From positions 83,386 through 147,385 of the forward strand of contig JBHLON010000001.1 in the NCBI GenBank assembly GCA_048940445.1: a DNA stretch of 64,000 nt. The letters are read 5' to 3'. The DNA is from Promethearchaeota archaeon. Lineage in GTDB: Archaea; Asgardarchaeota; Lokiarchaeia; Sigyniarchaeales; SOKP01. Shown piece after piece: positions 28,177-52,854 of this stretch (position 1 is the first letter of the stretch; every line of letters starts with the position of its first letter). Position numbers and translations under genes: made by a program. The notes beneath the pieces are model-generated. The model made no database searches. It worked only from the letters and a program-made list of their open reading frames with translations, and had not been told where the DNA came from.

Positions 28177-28280
28177 GGGCCCATGGTCTAGAGAATTCGT
28201 TATATATAGAAGATTCGGAAATTTGGTATGACGTCCGCTTGACGTGCGGAAGGTCGGGAGTTCAAGTCTCCCTGGGCCCA
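28177..28280 (+). tRNA. tRNA-Val (anticodon GAC) with a ~31-nt intron in the D-loop
   Basis: Acceptor GGGCCCA/TGGGCCC. Anticodon arm TCCGC-TTGACGT-GCGGA. Variable loop AGGTC. T-arm GGGAG-TTCAAGT-CTCCC. Discriminator A. The D-arm GTCTAG...TTGGTATGAC is interrupted by AT-rich sequence. The gene is a GC-rich island in an AT-rich region. Confidence 0.8.
28192..28222 (+). other. Non-canonical (D-loop) tRNA intron of tRNA-Val
   Basis: Removing 'agaattcgttatatatagaagattcggaaat' restores a 73-nt cloverleaf. The exact boundaries are ambiguous by 1-2 nt. I did not verify a bulge-helix-bulge fold. Confidence 0.6.
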
Positions 28281-28316
28281 TTAACTTATCAAAAGTTAAG
28301 AGGAACACCAAAAGCT

Positions 28317-30898: not shown

Positions 30899-30989
30899 TG
30901 CGTCGTCCGGGATTTGAACCCGGGTCCCGCGCGTTCTGCTTTCAATTAGAAAATGGCAGGCGCGGATTCTACCACTATACTAACGACGC
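30899..30989 (-). tRNA. tRNA-Gly (anticodon GCC) with a canonical 37/38 intron (~20 nt)
   Basis: The reverse complement gives acceptor GCGTCGT/ACGACGC, D-arm GTAT-AGTGGTA-GAAT, and anticodon stem CGCGC/GCGCG with loop CTGCCA[intron]C. The T-arm is CCGGG-TTCAAAT-CCCGG and the discriminator is A. Intron 'GCAG' can pair with 'CTGC' of the anticodon loop. Confidence 0.85.
30934..30953 (-). other. Canonical-position intron of tRNA-Gly(GCC)
   Basis: 20 nt 'TTTTCTAATTGAAAGCAGAA' (tRNA-sense) lie between A37 and C38. Removing them yields a 71-nt tRNA. Confidence 0.7.
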
Positions 30990-35321: not shown

Positions 35322-35948
35322 TTAATCTCTCGATTTTAATTTATTGAGTTCTTCTTCTAATTCCTTAATCTTACCATCGGGTTCTACAGAGGGTAATGCT
35401 CCCCCTACTTCAGCTCCAATTTCTGCATCTATTTCACCTAAAACATCCTTAACATCAGTATCAGTAACTGCAGTATCAATCATTAAATCATTTATTCCAT
35501 CAGTAGTTATTTCTTCCGTAACATTAAAGTCTTCGATATCTACTCCAATTTGAGTCATAAGTTCGGTAATTTGTGGAATTGATAATGAATTTTTTAGCGC
35601 ACCAAGACTCATTGCTATTCCTCTCATAATTTCAGCAACATCTTTTACAGCACTAGCTTGTTCCAACTTAAAGACCATACCTTCAAGGTTTGTCCTGAAT
35701 AGGTCTATTGCTCTTGCTTGTTTCTTAACTTGTAAGTAGTTACGAGCGTGAAATTCCGAACCCTGCATATCACCAGCTTTTCGAAGATTGACAGCTTTGT
35801 CCCTTGCAAGTTTTGCTGACATCTCCATTTTTTTTGTTTGCCTCATTAATCGTTTGTTAAAAACTTTTAATTTTACGGTCGCAGATCGTACAGTATCCTT
35901 TTTACGACCTCCGGATAACCAACCCGAAAGATCTTTCAAAAATCCCAT
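35322..35948 (-). CDS. ESCRT-III (Snf7/CHMP family; Vps2/24/46-like)
   Basis: 208 aa. The N-terminal half is a basic helical hairpin ('KLKVFNKRLMRQTKKMEMSAKLARDKAVNLRKAG...'). The C-terminal half is acidic. The terminal 'IKELEEELNKLKSR' has MIM1-like Leu spacing. The gene is divergent from vps4. Confidence 0.85.
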   Translation of the reverse strand: MGFLKDLSGWLSGGRKKDTVRSATVKLKVFNKRLMRQTKKMEMSAKLARDKAVNLRKAGDMQGSEFHARNYLQVKKQARAIDLFRTNLEGMVFKLEQASAVKDVAEIMRGIAMSLGALKNSLSIPQITELMTQIGVDIEDFNVTEEITTDGINDLMIDTAVTDTDVKDVLGEIDAEIGAEVGGALPSVEPDGKIKELEEELNKLKSRD

Positions 35949-36163
35949 TTTTCATCAACTTTTAGTTAATTTATATAATATAAAAAAATTCGAGATTATA
36001 TAATTTTTTGTAGACCAATAATTAAGATGATAAATCTCGAGGAGACATCATACCAAAAAGAAAATTTGTATTAACTTTTTTTAATGTTTAATAAAAGTGA
36101 AGATTGGTATTAGATTAATTTAAATAACAATTGAAATATTATAAAATAAAATAAGCTAAAAAT

Positions 36164-36180
36164 AAGAGGTTTTAATTATC
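36164..36180 (+). promoter_or_regulatory. Shine-Dalgarno (AAGAGGT) plus in-frame near-cognate start candidates ATT (36175) / ATC (36178) for vps4
   Basis: GAGGT at 36166-36170 immediately follows the in-frame stop TAA (36163-36165). ATT and ATC lie 4 and 7 nt downstream, in the Vps4 frame. Confidence 0.45.
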
Positions 36181-37395
36181 TCATCAGTAGACTCAAAACT
36201 ATATCAATATGCAGTCCAAGAAGCTCAAGCTGCTGTAAATTTAGATGAAAAAGGTCATTTACACCAAGCAATGAATAAGTACTTTAGAGCAGCAGAAATA
36301 CTTATTCAATTTATTAAGTATAATAAAAATCCAATTATGATCAGAAAGTGTAAAGATCAAATTGAACAATACATGACTAGGGCTCAAGTTCTTAAAGAGC
36401 ATCTAAGTGGTCCAAGAGCTAGGAGGCCACATCCAAAGGCAACTCCTAGTGAACCACATGAAGGAGAACCAAATGCAGAGGAAGGAAGTCTATCAGCTGA
36501 GGAGCAGGAACTCATGGACTCTATTTCAGACACAATCTTAACAGAATCCCCTAATGTTAAGTGGAACGAAATCGCAGGTCTAAGCGATTGTAAGCAAGCA
36601 GTAAGAGAAGCTATTGTATTACCAATCATGAAACCGGATTTATTTACAGGTGCAAGAAAACCATGGTCGGGAATATTGTTATTTGGACCTCCTGGATGCG
36701 GAAAAACATTATTAGCAAAAGCGGCTGCCACGGAATGTAAAGCGACATTTTTTAGTGTCTCATCAGCAGATTTATTAAGCAAATGGTTAGGTGAAAGTGA
36801 AAAATTAATCTCATCGCTTTTTAAGTTAGCCCGAACAAGAGCACCAAGCCTAATTTTTATGGACGAAATTGATTCCGTAACCACGACTAGAGGTAGTGGA
36901 CATGAAGGAGGAGGAGAGAGAAGAGTCAAAACTCAGTTATTACAAGAAATTCAAGGCGTTAAATCAACTCATGATAAGCCAATGCTTGTGCTGGGAGCTA
37001 CAAACCGACCTTGGGATATTGATATAGCAATGTTAAGCAGATTTGAAAAGAAAGTATACGTGCCACTTCCAGATCAACCAGCAAGAGCAGGTATTTTTAA
37101 GATTCATACTTCAGGAGTTAATTCTGCCTTAACAGAAGAAGATTATATTGAATTAGCAGTTCGTACTGAGTCTTATTCTGGTAGAGACATATCAAATATT
37201 TGCCGTGAAGTCATTATGATTCCTGTAAGAGAATTAGATATGGGTGGGTTACTGGAAGATCCGGAAAAAGAAGTTGTTGTGAGAGATATAAACCTAAAAG
37301 ATTTTTTAAAGACTATAAAGAAAGTAAAGCCAATGATGACTAAGGCTGAATTGAAGAAATATCAAGTATGGGCAGAGGAATTCGGAGAATTTTAG
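36178..37395 (+). CDS. vps4: Vps4 AAA+ ATPase (MIT domain + AAA + Vps4 C-terminal helix)
   Basis: Walker A 'GPPGCGKT', Walker B 'LIFMDEID', 'ATNRPWDID' and 'LSRFEKKVYVPLP'. The MIT helices 'LYQYAVQEAQAAVNLDEKG / HLHQAMNKYFRAAEILIQFIKY / IMIRKCKDQIEQYMTRAQVLKEHL' start upstream of the first ATG (36271, the conservative start). The proposed start is ATC 36178 or ATT 36175. Confidence 0.9.
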   Translation: MSSVDSKLYQYAVQEAQAAVNLDEKGHLHQAMNKYFRAAEILIQFIKYNKNPIMIRKCKDQIEQYMTRAQVLKEHLSGPRARRPHPKATPSEPHEGEPNAEEGSLSAEEQELMDSISDTILTESPNVKWNEIAGLSDCKQAVREAIVLPIMKPDLFTGARKPWSGILLFGPPGCGKTLLAKAAATECKATFFSVSSADLLSKWLGESEKLISSLFKLARTRAPSLIFMDEIDSVTTTRGSGHEGGGERRVKTQLLQEIQGVKSTHDKPMLVLGATNRPWDIDIAMLSRFEKKVYVPLPDQPARAGIFKIHTSGVNSALTEEDYIELAVRTESYSGRDISNICREVIMIPVRELDMGGLLEDPEKEVVVRDINLKDFLKTIKKVKPMMTKAELKKYQVWAEEFGEF

Positions 37396-37396
37396 G

Positions 37397-38281
37397 ATGG
37401 AGAAACAAAGAGAAAAACCAAAAGAAATTCCAAAAAAAGTTGAAGAAAAAGCAACAATAGATCTAGATGAATTAAGAAAGGAGTTAGCACGATTAAAAGA
37501 ACTGAAGAAACAAAGAGAGTCAGAGAAGCCTCCGGAAGACATTGTTAAGGAAGAAGAAGTTATTGAAAAACCAATTTCAGAAAACATTGGAACTCGGTTA
37601 GATAGAATTGAGGATTTCTTGACAAGTAAACTTGGTGATGTAGATTTAGAAGCATATAAGCAACATTCTGCTCAAATAGAAAAAGAACTTAAAAGCATAG
37701 AACAAGAATTAGTAGGTGAAGAAGGTGTTATAGCTAAAGAGATCTCTACCTACGAATTACTACTCAATGATTATCCTTGGCTTGAAGAAAAAAGATATGT
37801 ATTCATGTATTCTATCCCTAATAAAAAAAATAATCTTAAAGATTTCGAATCATGGAAGAATGAATGGTCAAAGGTACTTTTTGATTATGCAAGATATGCA
37901 ATTCTTCACATTTTATATTTAAGAAAATTAGAATCGGAGAAGCCATTCTCTAAATTTGAAAACAGAAATACAGCTTTAGAAATAATTGCGCAGGAATTAG
38001 TCGATAGAAACCAGGCAGAATGGCTTACAAAAAGCAAAGAGAAATTAAGAATATATTGGAAAACTCTTGACAATTGGGCAGAGGAAATTTATGAATGGGC
38101 CATGGAAATATCACCTCTAGAACCCATTTTGATATTTGAAATAAGAGAATCTAATAGAGCTTTCAGTACATTACCAAAAGAGGATTTGCTTGAAATTTTC
38201 AAAAGACTTGAGAAAAATGAACGTGGAAGGATTATTAAGTCAGAGGATGGCCAAATATCTTTCAAAATAAAGGTAGAATAG
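37397..38281 (+). CDS. vps25: ESCRT-II Vps25-like protein with a ~110-aa charged N-terminal extension
   Basis: 'NQAEWLTKSKEKLRIYWKTLDNWAEEIYEWA' compares with human VPS25 'GNLEWLDKSKSSFLIMWRRPEEWGKLIYQWV' (recalled from memory). The C-terminus '...RIIKSEDGQISFKIK' compares with '...AEIITVSDGRGVKFF'. The ATG is 1 nt after the vps4 stop. Confidence 0.8.
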   Translation: MEKQREKPKEIPKKVEEKATIDLDELRKELARLKELKKQRESEKPPEDIVKEEEVIEKPISENIGTRLDRIEDFLTSKLGDVDLEAYKQHSAQIEKELKSIEQELVGEEGVIAKEISTYELLLNDYPWLEEKRYVFMYSIPNKKNNLKDFESWKNEWSKVLFDYARYAILHILYLRKLESEKPFSKFENRNTALEIIAQELVDRNQAEWLTKSKEKLRIYWKTLDNWAEEIYEWAMEISPLEPILIFEIRESNRAFSTLPKEDLLEIFKRLEKNERGRIIKSEDGQISFKIKVE

Positions 38282-38285
38282 ATTT

Positions 38286-39014
38286 TTATATCGAGGGAAA
38301 ATACCATTGCTTCCCCTTTAAAAGGGACTCTCTATATTTTGCAATACCACTTTGCTCAAGAGAATGCAAAGTCTCTAATGCTCGATCCTGAGCCCAATTT
38401 AACCCCACACATACATCCTCTAAAGACAGAAAACCCTTATCTTTAGCAATTTCTAAAACTTTTACTTGATCACTAGTATATTGTACTGGAAAGAATCTAA
38501 TCATTATAGTGCCTGAATCCAATTCAATTAAATCATCAATTACTTGATTTTTCTTTAGTATCTTCAATGCTTTATTTAAGTCTTTAATATCAACGTTTCC
38601 TTTTAAAATTCCGGTATTTATCATGTCAAAAACTTCTGAAATAGGAATTATTCCGGCTCCAATTTCTTCTTTTTGCATAAGAACTCTTTGATATGCTAAC
38701 ATACCTAACTTCTCATGATCTACCTTTGAAGACCTTTTTAAAACATCATGTTCATTAATTTGCTCGGTGATGATTTTAGAAGTAGGAATTTTATATTCTT
38801 TTTGTAAATATTTTACTTCATCCTTTAATTCTGGTGTTAAAGCTAAAACAACTCCATGTTTCTTAGCTAATTCTCTTAATCTTTCCTTTGTAAACTTTTC
38901 TGTTTCTGCTTTAGCTTGAATGTCTTTTATTCTAAGCTCTGCTGCCTTTTTCTTGATCGCTTCTTTTAAGTCAATTTCATCTTCTATTTTTCGAATACCC
39001 ATCCTGCCTAACAC
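38286..39014 (-). CDS. ESCRT-II Vps22/36-like (EAP30 domain) protein
   Basis: The N-terminal 'GRMGIRKIEDE...' helix, then tandem winged helices ending 'LNWAQDRALETLHSLEQSGIAKYRE...KQWYFPS'. This matches the SNF8/EAP30 C-terminal pattern. Confidence 0.8.
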   Translation of the reverse strand: MLGRMGIRKIEDEIDLKEAIKKKAAELRIKDIQAKAETEKFTKERLRELAKKHGVVLALTPELKDEVKYLQKEYKIPTSKIITEQINEHDVLKRSSKVDHEKLGMLAYQRVLMQKEEIGAGIIPISEVFDMINTGILKGNVDIKDLNKALKILKKNQVIDDLIELDSGTIMIRFFPVQYTSDQVKVLEIAKDKGFLSLEDVCVGLNWAQDRALETLHSLEQSGIAKYRESLLKGKQWYFPSI

Positions 39015-39659: not shown

Positions 39660-40646
39660 TTAAGTTATTCTTTTAATCAAGCAAAAAAAGAATCCAATTG
39701 TATTATGAAGATGAGGATATAGCCTCTGAGAATATTTAAGGTCATCCAAAAGGTGTTTTTTATAATAAGATGTTAATCCTTGCATTCCATAATTTTTATT
39801 AATTTTTTGAATTTTAAATTTAGACTGATTTCTCAAAACCTTGTCTATTACTAATTCATTCTCTTCAGGACTTATAGAACAAGTACTATATAATAATAAG
39901 CCCTCTTGCTTTAATGAATGGAGTCCAGCATTTAATAATTCTTTCTGGACTTTAGCCAATTTTTCTAAGTCATGCATAGTTCTACTCTTTTTTCTACTTG
40001 AATCCTCTCTTATTAAACCCTCACCGGTACAAGGAGCGTCCAATAATATTTTATCAGCTTTAATGTTTAATTCTAATAAATTTCTTGCATCATTTTTTAA
40101 AATAATTGAATTGTTAATTCCCATTCTGCGTATATTCATTTCTAAAGACGAAATTCTCTTAGAATTTTTTTCAATTAGAATAAGAGTTCCTTGATTATTC
40201 ATAATTTGAGCTAAATGGGTTGATTTGCCTCCAGGAGCAGCGCACATATCTATTACAATTTCATTTATTTTGGGATTGAGAATCATTGGCGGAAGCATAG
40301 AGGCGGTATTTTGTAAATAATAATAACCTTGTAAATACTCATGAGTAGAACCAAGATTAAATTTAGTTTTTAAAACCTCGAATCCATAGGGAATCCATTT
40401 TATATTTTTTAACTTTAAACCTTTCTTTGTTAATCTGTATTTTAAGTTCTCTGTAGTTATCCTTAATGTATTAACTCTCAAAGATGGAATCAATGGTATT
40501 TCATTTGCTTCTAATAGCTTTATAGTATCTTCCAAACCTAAAATTTGGATATATCTCTCAATCATATAGGGGAGATAACCAAACTTTTGGGCAAGTTCTT
40601 CGCTTCTTTTTAGGGGATTAGATATTTTACTGTCAACTCGATCCAT
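39660..40646 (-). CDS. RNA cytosine-C5 methyltransferase (NOL1/NOP2/Sun family)
   Basis: SAM motif 'VIDMCAAPGGKSTHL', catalytic 'LLDAPCTGEG' and 'LLYSTCS'. Confidence 0.9.
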   Translation of the reverse strand: MDRVDSKISNPLKRSEELAQKFGYLPYMIERYIQILGLEDTIKLLEANEIPLIPSLRVNTLRITTENLKYRLTKKGLKLKNIKWIPYGFEVLKTKFNLGSTHEYLQGYYYLQNTASMLPPMILNPKINEIVIDMCAAPGGKSTHLAQIMNNQGTLILIEKNSKRISSLEMNIRRMGINNSIILKNDARNLLELNIKADKILLDAPCTGEGLIREDSSRKKSRTMHDLEKLAKVQKELLNAGLHSLKQEGLLLYSTCSISPEENELVIDKVLRNQSKFKIQKINKNYGMQGLTSYYKKHLLDDLKYSQRLYPHLHNTIGFFFCLIKRIT

Positions 40647-40700
40647 TCTATTAATACTTAATAAAAAATAATGAATTATATTTGTTATTAGTAAAGTAAG

Positions 40701-41309
40701 TTGAAGGATATGATTGAAGTCGAAATAAAAGTAGCTATTTCTAATCCAAAGTTGATATTAACAAAAGTAAAAGAACTAAATGGAAAATATATTATGTCGT
40801 TGAATCATGAAGATACATACTATAATATGCCAAATGGTTTAAGAAATTTCAAAGAAACCGATGAAGCACTCCGAATAAGGAAAGTTATCGAATTTAATAA
40901 ATATAAAGCTGATAAATCTTACTTGATCAAGGGTTATATCACTTATAAAGGACAAAAAATCGACCAAACAACCAAAACTCGTGAAGAAATAGAGATTGAA
41001 ATAGATGATTTCAAAAGTATGAAAAGTATGTTATTACATCTTGGATTTAAAGAAATAATTACTGTAAAGAAAGAAAGGGAATTATATGAATTTTGGTTTA
41101 AAAATAACAAAATTGAATTATTACTGGATTTTTTACCCCTTCTAAATCAAAATTTCATAGAAACTGAAATAATAATAAATGATAAGAAAAATATCAATAA
41201 AACTAAAGAGATTATGTTCGACTTTCTTAAACTATTTGGAGTAACTGAAAAGGAATCAATAAGAGAATCTTATTTAGAGTTAATAACAAAAAAGCTGCAT
41301 ATTCTATAA
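40701..41309 (+). CDS. CYTH-domain protein (triphosphate tunnel metalloenzyme / CyaB-like)
   Basis: ExExK signature 'IEVEIKV' at the N-terminus, 'EALRIRK', and 'EIEIEID'. The TTG 40701 or ATG 40710 start is uncertain. Confidence 0.75.
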   Translation: MKDMIEVEIKVAISNPKLILTKVKELNGKYIMSLNHEDTYYNMPNGLRNFKETDEALRIRKVIEFNKYKADKSYLIKGYITYKGQKIDQTTKTREEIEIEIDDFKSMKSMLLHLGFKEIITVKKERELYEFWFKNNKIELLLDFLPLLNQNFIETEIIINDKKNINKTKEIMFDFLKLFGVTEKESIRESYLELITKKLHIL

Positions 41310-51975: not shown

Positions 51976-52122
51976 ACTTATTTATCTTTTTTACTTCTTT
52001 CTTTTTTTACTCCTATGCAAAATATTAAATAATACTTGAATATAATATTACACATTCAATTTATTAGGTGATCCAATATAGAAACAACAAGAGTATTAGA
52101 TTTAATATTTAAAATCCTTTTA

Positions 52123-52854
52123 TTGTCAATTGGGATTATCTTTGATATATTTATAATGTTATTTTGCAATGATTATACATATTTGGGCAGAGTATTATTT
52201 TCCACGGGTATATTTATTGGGCCTACTTGCACTATTTTTGGAATTTCTTTCTTATTGCCTAGTAAGCACTCTGTTAGGATCTATTGGGTTATTATTGGAT
52301 GTTTGATTGGTGCAGGTTCGATATATTTGGGTACTTACTTCTTAGTTAATTCATTTTTCAAAATACCTCAATATGCTTACTCTATCTTACCTTATCTTTT
52401 GTACATTATACCATATATTCTTCTAGTAGGGGGAACACTTTTAATTATAGGTGCTCCATTAAATTTTGCAAGAAATTCGAAGAAGATAAGGAAATTGGAC
52501 TCATTGTCTCAAGCAGATTTAGTTAATTTGTTCAGCTGTCCCAAATGTGGAACAATTGGTGCTATTTACTTTGTAAAGCCTGTTAAAGATCAACTTTTAG
52601 TAAAACAAAAATGTCCCTATCATGGAGGAAGACTTTTTAAACTCCCAATAAGATTAAAAGATGATTCAATTTCCCACTTCCAGGATGCTATATTTCGTTG
52701 TCTTAAATGTGGACAAAGGGCTACATCTTTTCACGTAAAATATTCATTACCTTGGGCTTTAATTACAGTAGATTGCCCAACCCATGGATTGAAAACCTAT
52801 AAAATATGGTACACTGTCTACAGTGAAATTTCTGAAGGGATAATTGAGCGTTAG
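52123..52854 (+). CDS. Membrane protein with a cytoplasmic duplicated zinc-ribbon module
   Basis: There are four N-terminal TM helices. These are followed by 'CPKCG-x21-CPYHG' and 'CLKCG-x21-CPTHG', which look like an internal duplication. Confidence 0.5.
   Translation: MSIGIIFDIFIMLFCNDYTYLGRVLFSTGIFIGPTCTIFGISFLLPSKHSVRIYWVIIGCLIGAGSIYLGTYFLVNSFFKIPQYAYSILPYLLYIIPYILLVGGTLLIIGAPLNFARNSKKIRKLDSLSQADLVNLFSCPKCGTIGAIYFVKPVKDQLLVKQKCPYHGGRLFKLPIRLKDDSISHFQDAIFRCLKCGQRATSFHVKYSLPWALITVDCPTHGLKTYKIWYTVYSEISEGIIER

Follow-up and report, generated by a model that had tools for sequence, protein, structure and literature searches.

In Escherichia coli the genes infC and pcnB start at AUU, the classic near-cognate start codon of that organism, and translation table 11 allows ATT, ATC, ATA and CTG as starts. 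Here we describe an archaeal vps4 gene, encoding the ATPase of the endosomal sorting complexes required for transport (ESCRT), that probably starts at AUC. The gene is located in a stretch of 64,000 nt from a Promethearchaeota archaeon (GenBank assembly GCA_048940445.1, contig JBHLON010000001.1, positions 83,386 to 147,385 of the forward strand); this whole stretch is called the window, and all positions refer to it. The locus resembles the bacterial AUU genes in that a conserved, essential-type gene keeps a start codon with one mismatch, served by a Shine-Dalgarno (SD) sequence, and in that low or regulatable translation would be expected. It differs from them in being archaeal, with aIF1, aIF1A and aIF2 and no IF3, in using AUC and not AUU, and in having no known autoregulatory logic; Vps4 is not a translation factor, and any infC-type sensitivity of its start to aIF1 level would be speculation.

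A review of archaeal mRNAs (PMC7531240) names no start codons besides AUG, GUG and UUG, and AUC falls outside this set. In other respects the architecture is that of archaeal GUG and UUG starts on SD-led mRNAs, an example being the sister clades of the gene described here, where vps4 starts with TTG (12 loci) or GTG (two loci) and AGGT is located 8-10 nt upstream. Among 61,358 reconstructed AUG starts 363 were found to have changed to GUG, 113 to UUG, two to CUG and one to AUU, with none to AUC listed; sub-optimal start codons tend to be offset by stronger SDs (Belinky et al., PMC5622118). For near-cognate starts in prokaryotes the same paper is cited for a rate of roughly 1e-5 to 1e-4. Ribosome profiling in Haloferax placed ∼30% of putative alternative starts at near-cognate sites, which were set aside to limit false positives (PMC7261190). 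Literature searches covering Asgard archaea, Vps4 and their start codons, as well as AUC and AUU starts in archaea, turned up no description of an ATC-started vps4. The AUC start of vps4 is a rare and well-supported non-standard start codon, of a kind (near-cognate starts) that is itself already known.

A preliminary description of this DNA, made from the letters alone, had pointed out that the vps4 reading frame is open well ahead of its first ATG. Reading and translating the sequence bears this out. After the in-frame stop TAA (36163-36165) the frame continues as GAG GTT TTA ATT ATC TCA TCA GTA GAC TCA AAA CTA TAT ... GCA ATG, the stretch up to ATG 36271 is translated as EVLIISSVDSKLYQYAVQEAQAAVNLDEKGHLHQA-M, and none of the 35 codons in between is ATG, GTG or TTG. 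A survey of stop-to-stop frames across the window (29% GC) found startless leaders of 0-14 codons in real genes. Vps4, with 35 codons, is the sole real outlier, and because of this difference its long open leader is not a chance open frame. Two other long startless leaders in the window were set aside, one (39660-40757) being an overlap with a gene on the opposite strand and the other (28176) a tRNA-like sequence. The SD AAGAGGT (36164-36170), with ATT 36175 and ATC 36178 located 4 and 7 nt after it, is also present as described earlier, and so is an ATG at 36209 in another frame: it opens the +1-frame peptide MQSKKLKLL* and arises from the conserved Tyr-Ala codons TAT GCN. Between 36166 and 36208 there is no ATG, GTG or TTG in any frame. 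Fusion to an upstream open reading frame (ORF), readthrough and frameshift entry into vps4 are excluded, as stops occur in all three upstream frames and there is no usable canonical start.

The codons ahead of the first ATG encode a part of the protein that the MIT domain cannot spare. With these codons the Pfam MIT profile (PF04212) is matched at positions 2-66 of 66 with 40.8 bits (cut-off 30), while in the 374-aa form starting at ATG 36271 only profile positions 25-66 are matched, with 20.8 bits. In an AlphaFold2 model (m1e33256ffda9; built from a 30-sequence alignment, with mean predicted local distance difference test score, pLDDT, of 65.9 and mediocre outside the MIT domain, pLDDT being ∼77-85 over residues 11-70) the MIT helices are residues 3-25, 28-48 and 52-76, and Met32, encoded by ATG 36271, is located four residues into helix 2. 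Comparison of the 405-aa and 374-aa forms therefore favors the former: it alone passes the Pfam cut-off, and a start at Met32 would split the three-helix bundle. The preliminary description held that such a start would delete helix 1 and half of helix 2; the loss of helix 1 is upheld, but in the model only the first turn of helix 2 would be missing. The MIT domain is the module that binds ESCRT-III through the MIT-interacting motif (MIM) (PMC7240154).

Relatives of the protein number in the thousands in a protein search; those nearest to it are almost all 405 aa long and begin MSSVDSKLY. DNA was fetched for 86 orthologous loci, six by exact-protein look-up and 80 by scanning a single genome for each GTDB species; all are from Promethearchaeota/Lokiarchaeia-type metagenome-assembled genomes (MAGs) with mixed NCBI labels. 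On clearly Loki-type MAGs the labels Hermod-, Hod-, Odin- and Thorarchaeota look inconsistent with the Vps4 relationships. The initial M of the orthologues aligns with ATC 36178 of the window, so that their N-termini begin at this position and not at ATG 36271. Start codons were counted in the window and 85 scorable loci (L077, which ends at a contig end, was left out): the codon directly before SSVDSKLY is ATG in 56 loci, TTG in 12, GTG in two and ATC in 16. The ATC set consists of the window and L001-L015, nine of which (L007-L015) are species representatives. In a neighbor-joining protein tree the ATC loci make a single clade, as do the TTG loci. A pattern scan of JGI metagenomes for variants of the clade with an ATG start found none, and only one further locus, also with ATC. 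Altogether ATC is kept in 16 of 16 clade loci as well as in L087 and L094.

These comparisons bear directly on the suspicion, voiced in the preliminary description, that a sequencing or assembly error (a single-nucleotide polymorphism, SNP, or an indel) masks a canonical start. ATC is indeed one base away from ATG, and the region is AT-rich with homopolymers. Still, the pattern ...GAGGTTNTNATTATC TCN TCN GTN... is present in at least 15 independent assemblies (nine other species, with the JGI contig and a Logan variant included), made from different samples by different assemblers. The Logan assembly of SRR30758823 carries a strain variant of the window's own locus which has five SNPs at 36053-36101 and is identical to the window over 36102-36300, including TTAATTATC. 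Because the same ATC in the same frame recurs in so many independent assemblies, among them one from the same organism, we regard an assembly error as excluded, its probability being next to nil. The other explanation put forward at the outset, a near-cognate start, agrees with the data, since ATC aligns with the ATG, TTG or GTG of 70 orthologues and selection begins at the next codon.

The signature of selection is as follows. Between the window and other members of the ATC clade dS is 1.15-1.9 (saturated) and dN/dS is 0.03-0.07, which shows that vps4 is functional in this clade and that the clade is old. In codons 2-13 after ATC (SSVDSKLYQYAV) variation is almost purely synonymous (TCA/TCG; TCA/TCT; GTA/GTT; TCA/TCC/TCG/TCT; CTA/TTA/TTG; GCA/GCC/GCT; GTC/GTT), with amino acid changes limited to D/E and Q/N; these codons are therefore translated. 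Protein-level purifying selection starts at the codon following ATC 36178. Upstream of ATC the picture is different: only four codons (GAG, GTT, NTN and ATT) separate it from the TAA, two of these make up the SD, and the three variable positions between the SD and ATC would all be nonsynonymous if read as codons, with I, L or F as the residue at codon −2 and I or T at codon −1. The TAA itself is replaced by TTA in one locus (L009), where another in-frame stop is located two codons further upstream.

A start at ATG 36271 would yield a 374-aa Vps4 without MIT helix 1 and would make the upstream frame a relic. This is the first canonical start of the frame and the one chosen by callers of the Prodigal type, as was done in the Logan contig L094. 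Yet the same codon is ATA or ATT (Ile) in nine of the 12 unique members of the clade, in which the upstream frame is open and conserved too, and for this reason it cannot be the start of the clade. A relic would hardly keep codons 2-13 to synonymous-only variation at dS above 1. Moreover, no SD is present at usable spacing, the nearest SD-like AGGT being 15 nt upstream of 36271, and the truncated protein has the MIT defects described above. We judge a start at 36271 very improbable. Given that the downstream codons are translated, that ATG 36271 is unusable and that no upstream ORF or frameshift provides an entry, initiation of vps4 at a non-canonical codon within 36172-36180 is, as judged from sequence comparison, very likely indeed.

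Two of the codons in this interval had been proposed, ATT 36175 and ATC 36178, and of these the comparison favors ATC. Initiation at AUU 36175 (or at an AUU one codon further up in relatives), or diffuse initiation over the AUU/AUC cluster, would make the protein one or two residues longer. ATT occupies codon −1 in 15 of 16 clade loci, most of which read ATT ATT ATC, and the NCBI start in L001 is the ATT at codon −2. On the other hand, codon −1 is ACT in L015, and codon −2 is TTA in the window (36172-36174) and TTT in L004 and L008; thus ATC is the sole near-cognate codon in 36172-36180 that is present in every member of the clade. Besides, only ATC aligns with the orthologous ATG, TTG and GTG, and its spacing is the better one. 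Window genes whose SD matches over 5 nt or more have 5-8 nt between the T of GGAGGT and the start codon; the distance is 7 nt for ATC, and outside this range, 4 and 1 nt, for the two upstream codons. Initiation at AUU is therefore considered unlikely, and SD-led initiation at ATC 36178 specifically, with production of the full-length 405-aa Vps4, would be the probable course of events.

The SD motifs of the window tile GGAGGTGATC and are enriched ahead of genes, an SD being present upstream of eight of 53 genes vs 2.4 ± 1.5 at random positions. Most window genes have none, in line with Prometheoarchaeum, for which a low prevalence of SDs has been reported (PMC7531240). Among 79 unique orthologous vps4 start regions, those of the ATC clade alone carry the 5-nt GAGGT, with a spacing of 7; the other SD-bearing orthologues have the 4-nt AGGT at spacing 8-10. 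The weakest start codon thus goes with the strongest and best-placed SD among vps4 orthologues, a pairing that fits the compensation pattern of Belinky et al. (PMC5622118).

The sequence further upstream bears on whether GAGGT acts as an SD at all. The mRNA could be leaderless, or its leader could be very short, with a 5′ end at AUC or directly ahead of it, so that initiation would depend on the 5′ end. Such an arrangement would be in keeping with most window genes, which have no SD, and with the Prometheoarchaeum report, and a TATA-like AT-rich stretch is located at 36136-36148, 30-42 nt before ATC. The orthologous loci speak for a longer leader. Nearly all of them share a conserved element, AGATTA(GC)TATAAATA, ahead of vps4. 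In 31 loci it ends 23-25 nt (nearly always 25) before the start, which is ATG in every case and has no SD; where an SD is present, the distance to the start (ATG, TTG or GTG) is 44-62 nt. The homologous element of the ATC clade, AGATTAATTTAAATA (36112-36126), ends 51 nt before ATC, as in other SD-bearing orthologues, so that instead of a TATA box ∼25 nt before the start and no SD, the leaderless geometry, the window vps4 has the element 51 nt away and an SD. The placement is supported by a MAFFT alignment with L016 and L017, with which a downstream box, GAAATATTATAAAATAAA, is shared. A substitution-only fuzzy search had suggested AAATAAGCTAAAAATA, 13 nt from ATC, as the promoter element; it was ruled out by the same alignment. 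For the 45 genes without a 5-nt SD match, TATA-like hexamers in the upstream DNA were too noisy in position, the DNA being AT-rich, and the orthologous promoter alignment was used instead. Every TTG, GTG and ATC start sits in an SD-bearing locus with leadered geometry, and leaderless mRNAs have been described with AUG, GUG or UUG at the 5′ end (PMC7531240). We consider a leaderless or short-leader vps4 mRNA improbable and predict that the mRNA is leadered. Because the TATA-to-start distance of the leaderless orthologues is 25 nt, its transcription start is placed near 36152. Across L016-L086 vps4 alternates between leaderless (23-25 nt, no SD, 31 loci, ATG) and leadered SD-bearing (44-62 nt) architectures.

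The sequence of events that we favor, initiation at AUC 36178, may then be outlined as follows. An ancestral ATG would have changed to ATC once, at the base of the Lokiarchaeia-type clade, and would have been retained since. Transcription from the promoter at 36112-36126 would start near 36152 and give a 5′ untranslated region of ∼26 nt. The 5-nt SD GAGGU would pair with the 3′ end of 16S rRNA and so position the initiation complex 7 nt further downstream; GGAGGU and AUG are likewise 7 nt apart in the Pyrococcus abyssi aEF1A model mRNA (PMC6237735). The same paper describes the archaeal SD as pre-positioning the initiation complex, with local scanning to follow. As no AUG, GUG or UUG is within reach in any frame, the initiator tRNA would accept AUC with a third-position mismatch, giving the N-terminal peptide (M)SSVDSKLYQYAVQEAQAAVNLDEK. 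The output of Vps4 is expected to be below that from AUG, and would be partly offset by an SD that is one base pair longer and better spaced. The ‘translational throttling’ suggested in the preliminary description may be regarded as a plausible hypothesis. On three separate occasions the start of vps4 changed to a weaker codon, and always in loci that have an SD. Low Vps4 output may, as this suggests, be tolerated or favored.

Several considerations weigh against initiation at AUC. In Sulfolobus aIF1 is reported to discriminate against non-canonical starts (PMC6237735), and the efficiency of AUC could be very low. The AUU codons one or two positions upstream could contribute to initiation in most members of the clade, and the AT-rich stretch at 36136-36148 would allow a short-leader or leaderless transcript. 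Conservation of the third position is a modest argument: across the clade 9.4% of 4-fold sites do not vary, and three of 24 conserved Ile columns are codon-invariant (all three ATT). An ordinary codon as constant as ATC would thus be only a modest surprise, and the invariance is suggestive but not decisive. Finally, ∼125-130 nt upstream of ATC (36055-36177, aligned with L001-L015) are almost invariant despite saturated synonymous sites. The start region is thus inside a block of strong non-coding constraint, and conservation of ATC may serve some other element.

This invariant block is probably a regulatory region of the ESCRT locus. Within it a box, AAAAAGAAAATTTG (36055-36068), is kept even between clades with different start codons. 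Further upstream, in the intergenic region between the divergent Snf7 and vps4 genes, GATTATATAATTTTTTGTAGACCAAT (35994-36019) is nearly invariant in the ATC, TTG and GTG clades and the ATG sister clade, between which Vps4 identity is about 75-80%. This stretch may serve as a second promoter or as a site for a transcription factor common to these clades. Rfam was run on the entire window and, permissively, on 35900-36320, and no known RNA element came up in the vps4 leader. Folding of 36100-36240 gave no significant structure (z = +0.75, with 150 of 200 shuffles folding at least as well). The minimum-free-energy fold pairs GAGGU (36166-36170) with its complement AUCUC (36178-36182) in a predicted weak 5-bp hairpin with a 7-nt loop. 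The middle G-C pair of this hairpin depends on AUC instead of AUG, and the clade shows no variation there; the hairpin may be incidental.

Public annotation of the clade is divided on the start of vps4. NCBI annotation places it at ATC in three relatives and, in L001, at the ATT two codons before ATC (the position of the window's TTA, 36172-36174). An internal TTG (396 aa) is the start in two assemblies, one MAG annotated by NCBI and one Logan assembly, and the internal ATG (374 aa) is the start in another Logan assembly. The loci in disagreement are L001, L002, L003 (P0004) and L094.

The Vps4 protein itself is ordinary, and the unusual part is only the start of its translation. Pfam matches include the AAA cassette (PF00004, 7.7e-40), AAA_lid_3 (PF17862, 2.7e-09) and Vps4_C (PF09336, 34.3 bits vs a cut-off of 21.3). 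The motifs by which membership in the family was judged, taken in the order Walker A (GPPGCGKT), Walker B (IFMDEID) and pore loop (KWLGESE), were read straight off the translation. Comparison with solved Vps4 structures aligned residues 13-359 with residues 11-360 of yeast Vps4 (5uie_A, 1.1e-96) and residues 8-354 with residues 9-359 of human VPS4B (7l9x_A); the window protein is collinear with both from residue 8-13 onward. Its MIT-linker-AAA-Vps4_C order is the same as in the yeast, human and Asgard Vps4 proteins (Lu et al. 2020, PMC7240154); its gene is located next to ESCRT-III and ESCRT-II genes. The crenarchaeal CdvC is likewise an MIT-AAA ATPase partnering ESCRT-III, but the window protein scores 278.4 bits against the NCBIfam CdvC equivalog NF041006, well under the cut-off of 650. 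By sequence it belongs to the eukaryote-like Asgard Vps4 group and is not a CdvC equivalog. Genes for Snf7, ESCRT-II and EAP30 proteins flank vps4 in the window (Table 1), with the same order in orthologous loci of relatives, and the ATG of the Snf7 gene is conserved.

Table 1. Features of the vps4 locus and of a second candidate gene in the window
Feature	Position	Strand	Remarks
ESCRT-III (Snf7-family) gene, divergent from vps4	35322..35948	-	ATG start; Pfam Snf7 2e-16
Predicted vps4 promoter: BRE-like (B recognition element) AGATTA + TATA box TTTAAATA	36112..36126	+	Homologous to conserved element; putative role
Predicted transcription start	36150..36154 (near 36152)	+	Placed by distance in leaderless orthologues; 5′ untranslated region ∼26 nt with SD
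In-frame TAA stop bounding the open frame	36163..36165	+	Kept in 15 of 16 ATC-clade loci
SD GAGGT, core of AAGAGGT	36166..36170	+	Invariant in ATC clade
In-frame ATT, less likely start	36175..36177	+	4 nt from SD; ACT in L015
ATC, likeliest Vps4 start codon	36178..36180	+	Aligns with ATG/TTG/GTG of 70 orthologues; 7 nt from SD
vps4 coding sequence	36178..37395	+	405 codons + TAG stop; Pfam domains, orthologue length, dN/dS, structural collinearity
MIT three-helix bundle, residues 3-76	36184..36405	+	AlphaFold2 helices; Pfam MIT full-length match
Out-of-frame ATG, incidental	36209..36238	+	Nine codons, then stop
First in-frame ATG (Met32), internal codon	36271..36273	+	Ile in most clade members; inside helix 2
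ESCRT-II (Vps25-like) gene, directly 3′ of vps4	37397..38281	+	Pfam ESCRT-II 1.2e-10; synteny kept
EAP30 (Vps22/36-like) gene	38286..39014	-	Pfam EAP30 7.2e-10; synteny kept
Candidate gene with non-canonical start	52066-52854 (ORF 52072-52854)	+	8-nt SD AGGTGATC (52066-52073); ATA 52078

A second candidate emerged when the window was searched for long ORFs that begin with a near-cognate codon behind an SD. ATA 52078 is located 4 nt after the 8-nt SD AGGTGATC, or 8 nt from the T of AGGT. The first canonical start of this ORF, TTG 52123, is inside a conserved transmembrane helix (LIFxILLLSIGIxFD), and the homologues P0122 and P0123 begin 3-7 residues before the helix. Three lineages can be compared. 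Codons 2 and 5 after ATA are ACA and GTA in the window, ACG and GTG in L088, where GTG is the annotated start, and ATG and GCG in L092, where ATG is the annotated start. None of the three differs in ATA-GAA-A or in the SD, and the distance from the SD is 8 nt to ATA vs 14-23 nt to the annotated starts. CxxC pairs (zinc-ribbon-like) are present in the encoded protein, which matches no Pfam family. Two of about ten SD-led genes in the 64-kb window are without a canonical start at the conserved N-terminus, vps4 with AUC and the membrane/zinc-ribbon gene with AUA. One could propose, tentatively and with the balance of probability against it, that the Lokiarchaeia-type lineage tolerates near-cognate starts (AUC, AUA) on SD-led mRNAs as a recurrent, selectable expression setting.

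Elsewhere in the window two tRNA-like sequences with an apparent intron were observed. One, of 91 nt, is located at 30899-30989 on the reverse strand (Rfam tRNA, 48 bits). The other, at 28177-28281 on the forward strand, has the 5′ end GGGCCCATGGTCTAGAG at 28177 and a sub-threshold Rfam tRNA match of 25 bits at 28217-28280. ARAGORN reported no tRNA in the whole window.

For annotation the consequence is that callers limited to ATG, GTG and TTG give a 374-aa or 396-aa Vps4 with a broken MIT domain across the whole ATC clade, and such truncated calls could pass for MIT-less Asgard Vps4 in work on ESCRT evolution. If near-cognate starts are recurrent, many Asgard N-termini, ESCRT domains included, would be systematically mis-annotated, which would be of more interest than a single gene. 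It would also mean that start-codon stringency, relaxed in an SD-dependent way, is a property of these close relatives of eukaryotes, and, speculatively, Vps4 dosage could depend on aIF1 activity.

The switching of one gene between leaderless and leadered forms within one archaeal class is a clean natural comparison of two initiation modes. The three separate changes of this gene to a weaker start (TTG, GTG and ATC), all of them in leadered SD-bearing lineages, illustrate start-codon/SD compensation. With its conservation and phylogenetic age, and its place in a gene at the core of cell biology, the AUC start offers a clean natural substrate for studies of aIF1 fidelity and SD-assisted local scanning, and the archaea closest to eukaryotes are the setting in which the vps4 AUC start could serve such tests.

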